From an uncultured archaeon (GTDB lineage Archaea > Iainarchaeota > Iainarchaeia > Iainarchaeales > 1-14-0-10-31-34), in contig CAYTYC010000008.1 in the NCBI GenBank assembly GCA_964442255.1, positions 1 to 53,972 of the forward strand: a stretch of DNA of 53,972 nucleotides, in the 5' to 3' direction. Shown piece by piece: positions 33,001 to 42,000 of the stretch (its first letter is position 1; every line of letters begins with the position of its first letter). The position numbers are program-made.

Positions 33001-36000
33001 ATCCTTTACCTTGGGCACTCGGGATTCAAGATAAGTTTTCCCAGCGCAAACGTCCTTGTGGACCCTTTCCTGAAAAGCCCGGAAGACGGGAAAAGAATGG
33101 AGGCGTCCCCCTTTAAGGGAAAAGACCTCCGTGGCATCGCCTTAATACTGGTGACGCATGAACACTTTGACCACTTTGAAAAGGAAACAATTGAGGAGAT
33201 TGCCTCCAGGGACAACGCAATGGTTGTCTCCCATGAAAGCGTTCTGCAAAAGCTTTCCCTTCCATCAAACCGCCTTAAGCCAGTGAATGCAGGGGACAAG
33301 CTCGGCCTCATGAAAGTCAACATTGAGGCCGTTGCGGTGCACCATCCGCATTCCTTTTACCCCCTTGGCTTTTTGCTTGACGAAGGCAAAGAAAAAATTT
33401 TCCACGCCGGAGACGCCTCCTTAACCGACAATTTCTCCAAAATCAGGGCAAACGTGGCTTTGCTTCCCATTGGCGGAAAGTTCACAATGGACTGCGTGGA
33501 CGGGGTGCGCGCGACAAAATCACTTAAGCCTGATTACGTTGTGCCCATGCATTACAACACATTTGAGCAAATCAAATGCAATCCCGAAGAATTCAGGGAA
33601 CGCATTGACAAATCCATCCTGAAAACCCTTCCGGTAATATTAAAACCCGGGCAAAGCCATAACTTCAAGTTTTAGAAACTTTTCAAAAAAGTTTCATCAA
33701 AACAAACTTTTTTCCAAAAAGTTTGATCAAAAAGGGCCGCCTTCGGCAAGCGGCTTACGCCATGCGGCTTCGCCGTTGACGGAAAATTGACGCCCGTATC
33801 AGGAAAACCCCGCACTTCAGTGCGGGGAGGACGCCATTTCCCTAATTCAGGGCCCATATCCCGTAATTCAATGCGGAGGCAATGCTGACCCACGCCAAAT
33901 ACGGGAGCATCAAATAAGCTGCTTTTTTTGAAACCCTGTAAAAAAGAATGGTTGCTGCGAGAATTGAAATCCACAAAACAATTATTTCAGCGAACGCGAG
34001 GAAAGGGTTTCTCAGCCCAAAAAACAAAACAGACCACAACGCATTTAACCCAAGCTGCAAAAAGAAAACCCCTGCTGCGGGCTTAACCTTTTCCGTGTTC
34101 AGCCCTTTTTCCCACACAAGGTAGAGCGCCAGCCCCATCAGAGTGTACAGCGTAATCCACACCGGCGCAAAAACCCAGTTTGGAGGCGCAAAAAAAGGCT
34201 TTTGGAGTGAAGCATACCATCCGGGGATTGCGGGGGAAGTGAACACACTTCCTATCACTCCTGCAAGCTGGCAAACAAGTATTGCCGCAATTAATTTCAA
34301 TGCATTCATTTCACTTCAACCTGCATTAAATCCTCTGCCACCGTGCTTTCAGCAAAAACTGTGCGCGCCTCGTTCTCGAATTTCTGGGAATCCTTCTGCC
34401 TTGCGCTCAAATGCGTCAAAAAAAGTTTCCCGCATTCCGCTTTTTTCGCGATTTCCGCGGCCTGTTTTGCGGTTGAATGGAAGGTCTGCTTTGCCCTTGC
34501 CCTGTGTTCCTCCAAAAAAGTGGACTCGTGCACCAATACGTCCGATTCGTGGATGAATTTAATGCAGCTGTTCAATGGAAGCGTGTCAGGCACAATTGAA
34601 ACCTTTTTGCCGATTTTTTTCTTGCCTGCATCCAAAACCATTTCCGGGGAAAAAGTTTTTCCTTTGACTTTCACTTTTTCGCCTTTCTGGAGCCTGCTGA
34701 ACAAAGGCCCCTCGGGAATGCCTAATTCCAGCGCCTTTTTCCTGTTGAATTTTCCCAGTGAATCCTTTTCCTTGAACACGTAGCCGTAACAGGGAACCTC
34801 ATGCTTTGCCTTGAAAGCGGTTACATTGAAGGTTTCCCTCTCTTCTACCAAACCTTCCTTGACCTCTTTTGCAAGAATTTCAAAGTTCACATTTAACATG
34901 CTTAACTCAAGCGCCTGCTTAACCTTTTCTTTCACTCCCTTTGGCCCGAAAACCTTTAGGGGATAGTCCCTTTGGTGCATGCTCATCGTGGCAAGCAAAC
35001 CCGGCAGCCCGAGAATGTGGTCTCCGTGAAAGTGGCTCAAAAAAATGTGCGAAATCTTCAGGTAGGATACCTTTGCGTGCATCATCTGCCTTTGGGTTCC
35101 CTCAGGGCAGTCAAACAAATAGTTGAATCCGTTGAAGTTCAGGTTCACGCTTGAAAGGTTTCTTTCCTTTGAGGGAGTGGAAGCGCCTGTCCCCAAAAAA
35201 GTCAGCTTCATTTTTTTTCCTCCGCCATGCGGTTTATTTCCCGGATTATCCTGTCCGCAAGTTCCGCGATTTCTTGACAGTTGTAAGTGTTTCCTTTTGC
35301 CGCAAGCAGCACTTCAGACCATCGCTTTGGATGCTGTTTAGTTAATGCCTCCATAATCATCCTCTCAACATATTCATTTAATTTTTCGCCTTCCTTCGAC
35401 CTGAAGCCGGGTTCTTTTTTCCTGTTCCCATATGCGGTTATTATTGCTTTTTGAAGCCCTGGCGAACGAAGCTCCAAAAGGATTTGCTTTTCCATTGGCG
35501 TGCGCCTGAAAAAACCCATTAATTTTACGGCACCGGATTTGATCGCTTTCAAAATTCTCCGCATTTGCACCAGACTTTCCTAACTTAAACCAAGTTCTTT
35601 TAAATACTTAATTTTATAAGCATTCTAATATGAAAGAAAATAAAAAAGCGCGGGAAAGCCTTCCTTCAGGCGAATTCGATTCAACCGCCGAATTAAAGGT
35701 GCCCAAAAAGCTGATTGACCAGGTGGTGGGGCAGGAAAAGGCCGTGGAAATAACCCGAAAAGCCGCCGCGCAAAAAAGAAACGTGCTGCTTATCTGCACT
35801 CCCGGAACGGGAAAATCAATGCTTGCGCAGGCAATGGCGGAAATCCTTCCCTTAAGCCAGTTGAATGATTTGCTTGTTTACCCGAATGAATCCGACCCCA
35901 ACAACCCAAAAGTGAGGACAGTGAAGGCGGGTGAAGGAAAAAAAATCGTCCAGCAGACCAGGACTGACGCGCAGGCACAGGAAAACAACACCCGCCTGCT

Positions 36001-39000: not shown

Positions 39001-42000
39001 AATCGCGAAGGAAGCCGTGCAAAACGTTTCCGCGCTCCTTAAAAAGCTGAGCGGAAAAGACGTTTCAAGATACGACATGCACATCCAGTTCCTTCAAACC
39101 TACCACGGCGTGGAAGGCGATTCGGCTTCAATTTCCGTTGCAGCCGCGGTGATATCTGCAATGGAAAAAATTCCTGTCAAACAGTCGCTTGCAATGACCG
39201 GCAGTTTAAGCGTAAGGGGAAAGGTCCTTCCCGTGGGCGGGGTCACCGCAAAGGTTGCGGCGGCAATAAAAGCCGGCTTTAAGGAAGTGATTGTCCCGAA
39301 GGCAAACCTCCAGGACATCATTCTTCCGCCTAAGGAACTCAAAAAAATCAACGTGATTCCTGTCGGCACGCTCACAGAGGTTTTGGAGAACGCGTTTGAA
39401 AAAACTCCGGGCAGGAGCCGGCTATTGAAAAACCTTGGAAAGCTCCTTGGATTGGAGCTTCCTTCAGTGCTGAAGAAAAAGGTTTTGAAGTCGGTTAACT
39501 GATTTTTTTTTCCTGAGCCTGTTCAGCGTTCATTCAAACAAAGCCATTTTGAATCAAAACAGTTCAAGTAAGCAGGACCCTGCCTTTCCTTAGCCTGAAA
39601 TTTTTTCTTGCAAGCCTCACGGTTTCCTTGGTTTTGTTGTCCCTGTATTCAATGGATTTGCCGGCCTTGCTTATGTTTTCCACTTTCCCCATCCAGGCGC
39701 CTTCCGCCGAGTAAACAGGCAAACCAACCAGGAGCCTGGTGATGCGCTTTCTCACGTCAAATACGCCGCTTATCCTGTAAGCCGCGAGCAGCACAATGAA
39801 GCTGAACAGCATGCTGAGCAAAAAGAAATTCAAGTCATACTGCCTTGTAATCACCTGTGTTCCGGAATCCAAAATAAACCAGACCAGCAGCACGCTTACC
39901 GCACTCAAAAAATATTTTCTCAAATGGAACGCCTTTTTCAGGTGCACCGCGTCAATGCTTCTCCCGATTATGAAGCTCAATGCGGTCAGCACAAAGAAAA
40001 GGAATGTCGCCTGCGCGGCCTGAACCGACCTGATCAAAAGGTCGGGCTCCATTGTTGAAACGAATTTGCTGTAGCCGGAAATCAGCCCGAAAACCAGGAT
40101 GAAAAGGCTTCCCAAATAAAACGGAAAGCTCAGCCTTTGAATGGAAATTGTGGAAGAAAGTTCCCTGAAGAGGCCCAAAAACTTTTCCTCTATCCCGAAG
40201 CCTTTAAGCAAAAGGTATGCACCGAACACAAGGGAAATGAGCTGAAAGCTCCAGGTTCCCAGCGCAAAGAACAGCAAAAGAAGTATTCCCGGAACCCCGA
40301 AAACAATCCTTGAAACAAAGGGGTCCTTTAAGGCCTCCTTGATTGTGTAATAAGTGGACTCAACCTCTTTCGCCTGCTTTACATAGATTACCTCTTTTGA
40401 AATAACCGGTTTCCTTGACTGCAGTACGGGAATTATTTGGTCGTCTTCTGCCCCGTCGCTCACCAAAACAAAGGCGTCGGCGGGAAATTTTTCCAGCACG
40501 TCATCCAATTGGCGGTTCACTTCATTGTCCGAACGGAAACCGTCTTTTCCGTATCCGGTAAGGGTGGCGACCTCCACCTGCGTGTAAATTTTGCTGATTT
40601 GGTCGAATTTTTTTACAGCGCCAAAAATCGCGTTCGCGTCGCTTTCCCCGGGGTCTGCCACGGCAAGCTTTGCTGCAGCGTTCAGGTTACTGTTTCTTCC
40701 CAACACGGGGCCCTTTGTCCCCGCTTTTCTCCCCAAATCGTTGTCCCTGTCAACGCAGACCACCAAAATGCTTTTTGTGGTGATTTTCTGCTTCTTTTCC
40801 GCCATAAAAAACCCTACCTATATTTAAAGAAGATAATATTTAATACTTAGCCTGGATTAATTTTTAGGGGTGCCTGCTTGATTTCAAGCCAGATGAAGAC
40901 GGTGGTGTTCATTGCCTTGGTTGTTTTAGTGGCAGCCCTTTTTTTCACTGTCTTAATTAATGCCTCAATTTTCGTGCAAAACTTTCTTTCCATTCTGGTG
41001 ATAGCGGTTTTCCTGTTCATTATCTGGCGCTTTGACTTCATTGTCTTCCTTAAGGACTATGAAAGGGCAGTGATTTTTCGTTTCGGGAAAGTGAAGCGCG
41101 TTGGGGGCCCGGGGTGGGCCTTTCTTGTGCCATTGATTGAATCTTATTCTTTGGTTGATTTGCGGACGCAGACAATTGACATCCCCACCCAGGACGTGAT
41201 TACCGCGGATGGAATTGAAATAAGGGTTGACGCAGTGCTTTACTTGAGCGTTGACCGCGCCCCGCAAAGCGTGGTGAATTCCGTGATTGAAATCCGGGAC
41301 TACAGGAAGGCGTCCATTTTGTTCGTGGTTTCCTCCATGAGGGACATAGTGGGGGGAATAAACATGTTTGACGTGATAGGCAAAATAGAGGAAATAAACG
41401 AGAAACTCAAGAAAGGCCTGGAAAAGATTTCCAAGGACTGGGGAATCCATGTGGAAGCGGTTGAATTGAAGGACGTGGACATTCCGGAAACCGTGTTGAG
41501 TGCAATGCACGGACAAAAAGCCGCGGTGCAGGAAAAGCTTGCCCGATTTGAAGGAGCGGATGCCCACAAACGGGAAATCCTTGCAGTGAAGGAGGCGGCA
41601 AGGGAACTGGATGAAAGGGCTTTAAGCTATTATTATGTGAGGGCGCTTGAAAAAATGGCTGACGGAAAGGCAACCAAAATAATTTTTCCGGTTGAAGTCA
41701 GCCGCTTGGCGGAGGCAATCGGCGGAAAGCTTCACTCCGGCCTGGAAAAAAAGGGCTTTGACTTAAGCAAGGTGCAGGGCTACGATGAAGCCATAAAGGC
41801 CTTCCTCAAGGCGCAGGCAAAAAAGAAGAAAAAATAACGCGGTTTTTTTTTTCAAAAAATTGTTTTTTTTACCCCATCGCAATAAGATAGGCCTCAATCC
41901 ATGCCGCGGCAAACAATAACCCGACCGCGACCGCAATCATCATTCCCGCGTCAGCGAAAACCGTTTGCAGCTCGCGCTTTTTCCGCATTCTCTTGCTTAC

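Follow-up and report, generated by a model that had tools for sequence, protein, structure and literature searches.

Split inteins and fractured genes

DNA polymerase B of the DPANN archaeon Nanoarchaeum equitans and cyanobacterial DnaE are essential enzymes of cellular organisms that are rebuilt by trans-splicing of split inteins whose halves are encoded at loci far from each other, and no endonuclease gene intervenes. In the lonB locus reported here, by comparison, the two halves are 1.4 kb apart and an endonuclease gene is retained.

The arrangement is of the "fractured gene" type, which Dassa, London, Stoddard, Schueler-Furman & Pietrokovski described in 2009 from 26 phage-like loci that encode enzymes for DNA synthesis and repair, half of them carrying a Vsr-like endonuclease (PMC2677866). 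As in the loci covered by the main text of that paper, a free-standing endonuclease gene stands between same-strand split-intein halves, the downstream half begins close behind it, and some loci have lost the endonuclease. Unlike them, the locus reported here belongs to a cellular archaeon and breaks the gene for its sole AAA+ LonB protease; its endonuclease is of the LAGLIDADG type (a word occurring 0 times in that main text), with relatives among the in-frame inteins found at this lonB position. Contiguous LonB inteins are known from Euryarchaeota, of which 10 have been tabulated (PMC4760082). A further kind of split gene has been described from phage Aeh1, where NrdA is reported to be split by a mobile endonuclease and its pieces to assemble non-covalently (PMC3045599).

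Contiguous LonB inteins also occur in the archaeal order studied here (L060, L062 and L063). They are inserted into the same host protein at the same Gln|Ser point as the split ones, and each of their three parts (N-part, endonuclease and C-part) has its homologue in the split locus, the endonuclease domain lying between the regions that match the two intein halves. In contrast to split lonB, they are single polypeptides spliced in cis, and they start with Thr where the split inteins start with Cys or Ser. On the intein tree they branch as sister to the split inteins as a whole (SH-aLRT 100).

Organization of the lonB locus

The window, i.e. the whole 53,972-nt stretch of DNA analysed, belongs to a metagenome-assembled draft genome (51 contigs, 93.8% complete) of an uncultured member of the Iainarchaeales. 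Its lonB region contains the following features (coordinates, strand, description):

35630-36664, +, lonB N-half ORF, 344 aa (ORF listing)
35630-36271, +, LonB N-extein, residues 1-214, ending ...HDPLQ (4zpx alignment, TIGR00764)
35804-35818, +, Walker A GTGKS in the N-extein
35996-36130, +, two-helix membrane hairpin of the N-extein, residues 123-167 (aligned to 4zpx)
36272-36664, +, intein N-part (IntN), 130 aa plus stop (invariant residues, profile match to solved inteins)
36272-36274, +, Cys215, i.e. intein Cys1
36551-36562, +, block B TPEH, residues 308-311
36662-36664, +, IntN stop TGA
36665-37064, +, non-coding spacer, 400 nt (stops in all frames)
36871-36975, +, start-less 34-codon remnant of a small ORF in the spacer
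36995-37000, +, CACAGG box upstream of the endonuclease start
37026-37032, +, TATA-like TTAAAAA upstream of the endonuclease start
37053/37065-38057, +, endonuclease ORF, 334 aa from the GTG at 37053
37065-38057, +, free-standing homing endonuclease gene, LAGLIDADG by predicted fold, 330 aa from the second GTG (AlphaFold2, Foldseek, invariant residues)
37347-37376, +, motif 1 LLGTLFGDGG
37650-37679, +, motif 2 AFLDGLLSSE
38058-38080, +, A+T-rich spacer, 23 nt, endonuclease stop to C-half start
38075/38081-39502, +, lonB C-half ORF, 475/473 aa
38081-38203, +, intein C-part (IntC), 41 aa, blocks F/G
38189-38203, +, IntC terminal VLVHN
38201-38203, +, IntC terminal Asn41
38204-38206, +, Ser+1 (Ser42 of the C-half)
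38204-39502, +, LonB C-extein, 432 aa, with LID and Lon protease domains (3k1j alignment, Pfam, TIGR00764)
38273-38290, +, Walker B VLFLDE in the C-extein
39116-39130, +, GDSAS in the Lon protease domain
39239-39256, +, GVTAK in the Lon protease domain

The three-ORF layout is confirmed at these coordinates. The genome-wide survey's note had placed three ORFs here, 400 and 23 nt apart with no N between them, and both the ORF listing and the sequence bear this out: the gaps span 36665-37064 and 38058-38080, all parts of 35630-39502 that were read are free of N, and stops close every frame of the larger gap. The TGA of the N-half (36662-36664) and the ATG of the C-half (38081) are separated by 1416 nt. 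The survey had also reported the three-gene order from other Iainarchaeales, and the same order was indeed found in many families.

The small ORF, a remnant here, has homologues in L038, L043, L044, L046, L049, L057 and L067 and is intact in some relatives, and an 80-nt stretch of the 400-nt spacer is 79% identical to the matching spacer of L067. Upstream of the free endonuclease gene, the pattern CAxCGG, then TTAAAA or TATAAA, then the start recurs among aligned relatives, which points to a putative promoter role for the CACAGG/TTAAAAA region. The C-half would be either co-transcribed with the endonuclease gene or served by a promoter within the 3' end of that gene.

LonB exteins and the splice junction

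lonB is broken at a codon boundary, Gln214|Ser. Residues 9-214 of the N-half align to residues 19-217 of Thermococcus onnurineus LonB (4zpx; phmmer, E 6e-53), and the N-extein matches positions 3-200 of the NCBIfam LonB model TIGR00764. The C-extein aligns to residues 180-598 of the same protein (3k1j; phmmer, E 1.4e-173), matches Pfam Lon_C (5e-33) as well as LonB_AAA-LID, and scores 648.6 bits against TIGR00764 (cut-off 516.6; positions 193-606). The junction is seamless: the C-half matches the solved chain from residue 218 on, starting at the Ser that follows ...VLVHN, so that residue 217 passes into 218 with no extein residue lost or repeated. The survey's view that alignment to an intein-less LonB resumes without loss of a residue thus holds for 4zpx/3k1j, and in the intein-less relatives L071 and L072 ...HDPLQ is directly followed by SGGLGT. 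Taken together, the two genes supply an S16 protease domain and an AAA+ module in which a membrane hairpin separates Walker A from Walker B, as in the archaeal membrane-bound LonB.

The claim that this is the only archaeal-type LonB of the genome was supported by a Lon_C scan, which returned four matches. An AAA+ module accompanies just the one on this contig; those on contigs C28, C1 and C19 are signal-peptide or membrane proteins with the S16 domain alone, and the scan found no second AAA+ Lon among the 51 contigs of this 93.8%-complete genome. Since the lonB genes are split, with intein halves and a separate homing gene between them, the two LonB pieces most likely need to be joined post-translationally.

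The intein halves

Both intein parts described by the survey, a 130-aa N-part with Cys215 and TPEH and a 41-aa C-part ending in VLVHN right before Ser42, were mapped to the positions listed above. Of 29 aligned split N-parts, 14 begin with Cys and 15 with Ser, and TPEH is invariant (29/29); the relative numbered G046, in a numbering that may differ from that of the earlier note, has Cys as its first intein residue, where the survey had given Ser. All 21 relatives compared keep both the terminal Asn and Ser+1. The penultimate IntC residue is His in 16 of the 21 and S, C or K in the other five; some active inteins tolerate replacement of this His, and splicing could be slowed.

A profile of the 29 IntN sequences matched the solved inteins MJ0781/KlbA (2jmz, 2.3e-7) and Pho VMA (4o1s, 0.0016). 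Curated intein models gave E-values of 0.0011 for TIGR01445 (19.9 bits, below its cut-off of 24.5) and 0.17 for TIGR01443, and no intein or LAGLIDADG Pfam family was matched in the ORFs at E ≤ 0.01. The first residue (Cys or Ser), TxxH, a terminal Asn followed by Ser and a host protein left intact once the intein is removed are, by sequence, those of a class 1 intein. Its parts lie on separate genes with their own stop and start, and it is split where the contiguous homologues carry the endonuclease, as in naturally split inteins. Ratios of dN/dS for IntN were 0.08–0.28 among non-saturated pairs.

IntN and IntC are predicted to dock. Complex prediction on our own alignments scored 0.83 (runs of 0.83, 0.85 and 0.83) and 0.00 in the best of 3 controls; the runs share at least 81% of contacts, with a partner pLDDT of at least 65. 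Of 157 solved complexes 116 attain the score mark used, as do 2 of 215 mismatched pairs, and since split-intein complexes have already been solved, the pass may reflect likeness to these.

The free-standing endonuclease

The middle gene is, by its predicted fold, a two-motif LAGLIDADG enzyme. Its AlphaFold2 model (pLDDT 89.9, pTM 0.89) was matched by Foldseek to I-Tsp061I, I-DmoI, PI-SceI, TliVMA and PI-PfuI (E 1.4e-7, for I-Tsp061I, to 2e-4), with a probability of 1.00 for I-Tsp061I, I-DmoI, E-DreI and PI-SceI. Each of the two motifs contains an acidic residue, D106 and E209, which we take to be catalytic from the known LAGLIDADG motif; G105, D106 and G107 in one motif and D203, G204 and E209 in the other (numbered from 37053) do not vary among the 21 sequences compared. 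The ATG starts of relatives line up with 37065.

Sequence searches reached less far: no Pfam family was matched at E ≤ 0.01, the best phmmer hit against the PDB had an E-value of only 0.66, and the only curated match was to NCBIfam NF038162, a model of intein-containing RtcB, in its intein part (E 6e-17, with a score well short of the cut-off set for the whole protein). The protein is 31–33% identical to the endonuclease domain of the three contiguous lonB-site inteins; this and the NF038162 match agree with the survey's description of a free-standing protein like the endonuclease part of contiguous LonB and RtcB inteins. It resembles the solved LAGLIDADG enzymes I-Tsp061I, I-DmoI, PI-SceI, PI-PfuI and TliVMA in fold and in the two motifs with their acidic residues. 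It differs from them in sequence (12–18% identity), in an extra helical N-terminal region of ∼90 aa, and in being encoded outside introns and not in frame with an intein.

Distribution and history of the insert

An IntN homologue was found in 53 of 215 genomes of the phylum, and only three of the 53 have it in contiguous frames (1124–1158 aa). Within the order, 38 of 151 sampled genomes have it as the continuation of the LonB N-half, either in a short frame or at the end of a contig. All loci matching the endonuclease profile (37/37) lie inside a broken lonB, the endonuclease gene being placed between same-strand halves.

The insert has a G+C content of 40–43% (∼42%) compared with 52% in the exteins; for IntN the value is 0.427, against 0.522 for the extein. 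The extein tree tracks family labels with 20 changes, the minimum possible being 18. On the intein tree, AU tests rejected a single clade of the two f4 genomes (p 6e-6) and of the four split f1 rows (p 3e-4), the tested clades being family labels chosen after the tree had been seen and the trees quick searches on short alignments of 148–327 columns. The intein, endonuclease and host-gene trees disagree, and this disagreement, together with the low G+C of the insert, suggests that the insert is mobile. Furthermore, the endonuclease tree departs from that of the intein; the histories of endonuclease and intein halves are partly separate, and an insert moving as a single unit is therefore too simple a picture.

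Proposed mechanism and alternatives

As a whole, the locus is best explained, and in our estimate very probably, by a mobile insert (IntN, a spacer with a putative promoter, a LAGLIDADG gene and IntC) that broke lonB, with LonB restored by trans-splicing. The first polypeptide would comprise the N-extein, with Walker A and the membrane hairpin, followed by 130 aa of Hint domain; the second would begin with the 41 aa of IntC and continue into Walker B, the LID and the protease domain. IntN and IntC would form a complete Hint fold at the membrane and carry out class-1 protein trans-splicing through a thioester at Cys215, attack by Ser+1 and cyclisation of Asn41, giving a seamless 646-residue LonB that would assemble into the usual hexamer. 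The endonuclease would play no role in splicing. Most likely it cuts insert-free alleles, whether intein-less lonB or split loci lacking the endonuclease, and repair would then copy the insert, a route that would account for its scattered occurrence among families. We infer trans-splicing from catalytic residues invariant in 21–29 diverged relatives, from purifying selection and from the predicted complex; we likewise infer the association in vivo, the splicing chemistry, the activity and target of the endonuclease, and the transcription units.

A narrower alternative accepts trans-splicing and concerns the middle gene, which may be domesticated or inactive, the insert being inherited vertically with occasional ordinary recombination. 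Six relatives (L042, L045, L053, L054, L059 and L061) keep the split intein with no endonuclease homologue between the halves, and the conflict between endonuclease and intein trees speaks against one strict unit. We nevertheless regard an inactive endonuclease as rather unlikely, given that both presumed catalytic residues are invariant and dN/dS is ∼0.1 (0.09–0.13 in non-saturated pairs), that the gene was found only in broken lonB (37 of 37 loci), that the intein tree conflicts with that of the host gene, and that the G+C content of the insert is foreign. Less probable still, with a small chance in our judgement, is that the intein halves only dock and the two LonB pieces work non-covalently without ligation, as in phage Aeh1 NrdA. 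The predicted binding could by itself restore the AAA+ module, in five of 21 relatives the penultimate residue is not His, and assembly through interaction domains derived from mobile elements has a precedent (PMC3045599). Docking would not, however, need the position-1 nucleophile, TxxH, the terminal Asn or Ser+1, yet all are kept while IntN identity among relatives falls to 36–76%, and position 1 alternates solely between the nucleophiles Cys and Ser.

Least credible, and already close to refuted, is the view that the gene is decaying or that faulty assembly or sequencing produced the split, a contiguous LonB intein having been broken by errors or inactivating mutations and LonB being non-functional. 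The assembly is a draft in 51 contigs, and some relatives have a broken endonuclease (L055) or a 73-codon remnant of it (L052). Against this, dozens of assemblies made independently show these same stops and starts, no frame stays open through the 400-nt spacer, in which a promoter-like element is conserved, every LonB functional motif is intact in a genome with no other AAA+ Lon found, and purifying selection on the exteins of split genomes is strong (dN/dS 0.03–0.15, non-saturated pairs). Moreover, a second sample from the same study contains short contigs that show identity to this stretch in 26 of 30 bins.

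Gene anatomy of lonB

The lonB gene of this Iainarchaeales archaeon is divided between the first and third of three successive open reading frames, with a free-standing LAGLIDADG endonuclease gene in the middle:

35630-36664, + strand, N-half ORF, 344 aa
36995-37000, CACAGG box upstream of the endonuclease gene
37026-37032, TTAAAAA, a TATA-like element upstream of the endonuclease gene
37053-38057, + strand, middle ORF, 334 aa from a GTG, or 330 aa from a second GTG at 37065
38081-39502, + strand, C-half ORF, 473 aa; a TTG start at 38075 would add 2 residues

Stop codons close all frames of the 400-nt gap between the first and second genes, and just 23 nt separate the second from the third. 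Pfam assigns the beginning of the AAA+ module to the first gene, and the remaining AAA+ module, the LonB LID domain and the Lon protease domain to the third; a Pfam scan of the middle gene returned no family at E ≤ 0.01. When aligned to the solved LonB of T. onnurineus (4zpx, 3k1j), residues 9-214 of the N-half match chain residues 19-217 (E 6e-53), and the C-half matches residue 218 onward, starting from the Ser that follows ...VLVHN (E 1.4e-173). The halves therefore abut at LonB 217/218, and the host sequence is broken exactly between Gln and Ser with no residue missing. What lies between the extein parts is a stretch of 130 residues with Cys215 as its first and TPEH inside (IntN), the middle gene, and 41 residues with a His-Asn end (IntC). 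The two-gene lonB with an exact intein junction described in the genome-wide survey's note is thus borne out by the ORFs, the closed spacer and the seamless alignment, and Cys215, TPEH and the terminal ...VLVHN before Ser42 of the third ORF are all present as claimed there.

The same note held this LonB to be the only one of the genome. This agrees with the four Lon_C matches in the 1.28-Mb genome, which is in 51 contigs and 93.8% complete: only the LonB of the window carries an AAA+ ATPase. The other three are secreted or membrane proteins that have an S16 domain and no ATPase, each with an N-terminal hydrophobic segment (contigs C28:3676-3882, C1:43806-44078 and C19:7681-7962 of this genome, G000).

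The intein halves

All four hallmarks of a class-1 intein were found: a nucleophile at position 1, TxxH, a terminal Asn and Ser at +1. Curated intein models stay below their cut-offs (TIGR01445, 19.9 bits against a cut-off of 24.5; TIGR01443, E 0.17). A profile of the N-parts of 29 relatives matches the solved inteins Mja KlbA (2jmz, 2.3e-7) and Pho VMA (4o1s, 0.0016) and, at weaker values, TliVMA, Pab PolC and NrdJ-1. These 29 split N-parts are 36 to 74% identical to the IntN of the window; T-P-E-H is kept in every one, and at position 1 the nucleophile is Cys (14) or Ser (15). Likewise, all 21 C-parts keep the terminal Asn and Ser+1; their penultimate residue is His (16), Ser (3), Cys (1) or Lys (1).

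Complex predictions were run on IntN and IntC, each with a few extein residues, using custom alignments. Three runs scored 0.83, 0.85 and 0.83, and the best of three controls scored 0.00; the mark applied to such scores is reached by 116 of 157 solved complexes and 2 of 215 mismatched pairs, although a pass may mirror likeness to solved split inteins, since complexes of that kind have already been solved. At least 81% of the contacts agree among runs, partner pLDDT is at least 65, and the predicted interface takes in the TPEH block and the residues around position 1. These models support binding of IntN to IntC.

The free-standing endonuclease gene

A phmmer search of the endonuclease against the PDB gave a best E of only 0.66, so fold comparison was used. 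The model, built with 20 relatives (pLDDT 89.9, pTM 0.89), matches I-Tsp061I (1.4e-7), I-DmoI and E-DreI, as well as the endonuclease domains of the TliVMA, PI-SceI, PI-PkoII and PI-PfuI inteins. Both motifs, LLGTLFGDGG and AFLDGLLSSE, were found, and their Gly, Asp and Glu are kept in all 21 free-standing relatives. The two pairs that were not saturated gave dN/dS values of 0.088 and 0.132. The homing endonuclease is probably still active. Its reported likeness to the endonuclease regions of LonB and RtcB inteins also holds. Three contiguous inteins that occupy this site of lonB (L060, L062, L063) have an in-frame endonuclease domain to which the middle gene is 31-33% identical, and in the NCBIfam model for intein-containing RtcB the middle gene matches the intein portion (E 6e-17).

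A common pattern precedes the free endonuclease gene in the relatives: CAxCGG, about 20 nt, TTAAAA or TATAAA, about 20-30 nt, and the start codon. The relatives' ATG aligns with the window's GTG at 37065. This pattern, represented in the window by the CACAGG box and the TTAAAAA element, may be read as the endonuclease gene's own archaeal promoter.

Two candidates for coding content upstream of the endonuclease were rejected. The spacer gives no sign of being a remnant of the Zn-dependent-phospholipase-C-like gene of some relatives (tblastn had no match better than E 0.098 in the window, and none in the spacer), and an 89-aa ORF at 36824-37093 is not kept in relatives, in which another frame, 36871-36975, is the conserved one. 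In seven relatives (L038, L043, L044, L046, L049, L057, L067), that frame corresponds to a roughly 49-codon ORF that directly precedes the free endonuclease gene and contains a conserved ...RE(L/M/I)WIL... stretch; the window keeps just a 34-codon remnant, whose head lacks ATG, GTG and TTG.

Proposed trans-splicing of LonB

The best reading of the locus, and in our view a very probable one, is that LonB is made by protein trans-splicing, as the survey's note had proposed. The gene anatomy, its conservation and the selection acting on the split lonB are direct observations that support this reading; the chemistry and the association of the halves in vivo we infer. The N-extein-IntN protein would enter the membrane via the LonB hairpin and be bound there by IntC-C-extein, after which the Hint fold would assemble from IntN and IntC. 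Cys215, Ser+1 and Asn41 would then perform the standard splicing reaction, with a seamless LonB of 646 residues as the product.

Decay of the gene or an assembly artefact as the source of the broken lonB is excluded, because independent assemblies show the same layout, selection acts on the exteins (dN/dS 0.03-0.15), no LonB motif is disrupted, and identical contigs were recovered in a second sample. Translational bypass or read-through over 1.4 kb is ruled out by the independent, conserved gene with a promoter-like element that stands between the halves. The main rival is that the two halves dock without being ligated; docking of this kind, however, leaves unexplained why exactly four catalytic positions are retained amid divergence elsewhere. 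If trans-splicing is true, a reduced-genome archaeon relies on it at the membrane for its only ATP-dependent Lon protease.

Distribution in the order and phylum

A LonB N-half was found in 149 of 151 genomes sampled from the order. In most of them the match ends at residue 215, and the frame that holds it is 624-817 aa long or is truncated where the contig ends. In 38 of the 151 genomes the N-half runs on into a homologous IntN within a short frame of 137-400 aa, truncated by the end of the contig in some cases; two of the 38 are longer (822 and 827 aa), owing to a further intein upstream. The order scan also found the homologous intein contiguous in one frame of 1124-1158 aa in three genomes, and a different contiguous intein type at the same site in three genomes. 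Across the phylum, an IntN homologue was detected in 53 of 215 genomes, three contiguous and two outside the order.

A total of 37 loci were fetched and mapped. The three-gene layout that had been reported from other Iainarchaeales families was confirmed, with the full order N-half, endonuclease, C-half in 17 loci (window included) and the same order, as far as the DNA extends, in four more. L055 has a broken endonuclease and L052 retains just a remnant of one, and no homologue of it lies between the halves in L042, L045, L053, L054, L059 and L061. An independent scan with the endonuclease profile, using one genome per species, resulted in 37 loci, all in a broken lonB; most are Candidatus Iainarchaeum records, and two more distant ones are labelled Micrarchaeota. 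Viral contigs scanned with this query yielded 77 pattern matches and no relatives, and thus no viral carrier.

In the three contiguous homologues, L060 (genome G032), L062 (G092) and L063 (G082), the residue that follows ...HDPLQ is Thr, which is unusual at the start of an intein; in the split ones it is Cys or Ser. One genome bin, G110, holds two versions of lonB, split on contig C43 (L070) and contiguous on C44 (L064). In the extein tree the split exteins group with family f1 and the contiguous one with the bin's own family, f23; G110 is probably a mixed bin, and its split copy was given a separate label in the trees.

Probable mobility of the insert

G+C content is 40-43% in the insert against 52% in both exteins, and the shift falls at the junctions. 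The extein tree agrees with the family labels, requiring 20 changes of label (minimum 18, shuffled mean 27.7). The intein tree was built without L046 (a masked run of X), L064-66 (the unrelated contiguous intein type) and L071-72 (intein-less). In it all split inteins group together to the exclusion of the three contiguous ones (SH-aLRT 100), and families are scattered within this split clade. AU tests on this tree rejected a single clade for the two f4 genomes (p 6e-6), whose exteins are nearly identical, and for the four split f1 rows (p 3e-4); the groups tested were the family labels, but the tree had been inspected before testing.

The endonuclease tree departs from the two main intein clades: their labels require 4 changes on it (shuffled mean 4.8), and its starred branches force all 4. 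This departure points to partly separate histories of the endonuclease gene and the intein halves, which would fit either recombination inside inserts or invasion of split loci that lacked an endonuclease. Modules of the insert thus appear to be exchanged between loci. The endonuclease of L055 is 66-72% identical to that of the window, and its IntN just 48%.

Comparison with known systems

The layout in the window is that of the "fractured genes" of Dassa et al. 2009 (PMC2677866), half of which contain a Vsr-like endonuclease; a term search of the main text of that paper did not find the word LAGLIDADG. The present case differs in that the host is a cellular archaeon, the gene encodes a housekeeping protease, and inteins at this very site carry an in-frame domain homologous to the endonuclease. 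Two routes are proposed by Dassa et al. (PMC2677866): free endonucleases invade mini-inteins or, in reverse, lose their flanks to become in-frame domains. In that work, the order of the fracturing events could be no more than modelled. Contiguous LonB inteins are known from Euryarchaeota (10 tabulated in PMC4760082). Searches of literature outside subscription journals turned up no description of a split LonB intein or of an intein in any Iainarchaeota genome.

Within this one order, the site occurs in four states: empty, with an in-frame endonuclease intein, split with a freed endonuclease, and split without an endonuclease. With these side by side, the sequence of gene-fracturing events becomes testable on real sequences. 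We tentatively offer a joint reading, which as a whole we regard as rather less probable than its alternatives. The insert (IntN, promoter, LAGLIDADG gene, IntC) would represent a transitional form that still exists today, midway between inteins with an in-frame endonuclease and split inteins whose parts are dispersed, and it would remain mobile in cellular archaea. It would have arisen a single time, either out of the contiguous LonB intein of this site or side by side with it, and would spread between families with exchange of endonuclease modules between loci. Cargo genes would have come to settle in the middle gap and to drive the halves apart. Where, as in some relatives, a second intein 71 residues downstream is split as well, two orthogonal natural trans-splicing reactions would join three polypeptides into LonB.

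Natural split inteins are scarce, and protein-ligation tools are built on them. The locus and its relatives make up a family of about fifty natural split-intein pairs, in which Ser at position 1 in about half of the aligned pairs, together with Ser+1 in all, suits work in oxidising conditions.

Further inteins and cargo in lonB of relatives

A second intein, also broken, lies 71 residues into the C-extein (...VP|CDFVLV...) in L040 (G026), L051 (G036), L052 (G009) and probably L044 (G128), and not in the window. The middle ORF of these relatives comprises the IntC of the first intein, 71 extein residues, the N-part of the second intein with its LAGLIDADG domain, and a stop; the third ORF has a Met start and a C-part ending VHN|C. 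This second intein is split after its endonuclease domain, not before it. Judged from these frames, three polypeptides would make up LonB in such relatives. In this order, LonB is a hot spot for inteins (L061 in G001, L067 in G054, L042 in G053): a further intein lies close to residue 62, within the Walker A region (the N-half frames are 822-827 aa long), and a contiguous LAGLIDADG intein lies at ...RVE|C, 13 residues past the split site.

One gene recurs between the halves (L041, L044, L045 with two copies, L056, L057 and L061) and is absent from the window. It encodes about 230 aa with a Zn-dependent phospholipase C-like domain and is found on the same strand, after or in place of the endonuclease gene. 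Its PF00882 matches are just above the cut-off (E 7e-8 to 5e-6), and one of the two L045 copies has no Pfam match. The gap between the halves, up to 4.3 kb long, gathers other cargo in L053 (G114), L054, L055, L059 and L045. One set resembles a diversity-generating retroelement, as it combines a reverse transcriptase, a bAvd-like protein and a protein with an Lcl_C domain; other cargo at these loci includes AAA_14/DUF4143 ATPases, a nucleotidyltransferase and an aspartate decarboxylase gene.
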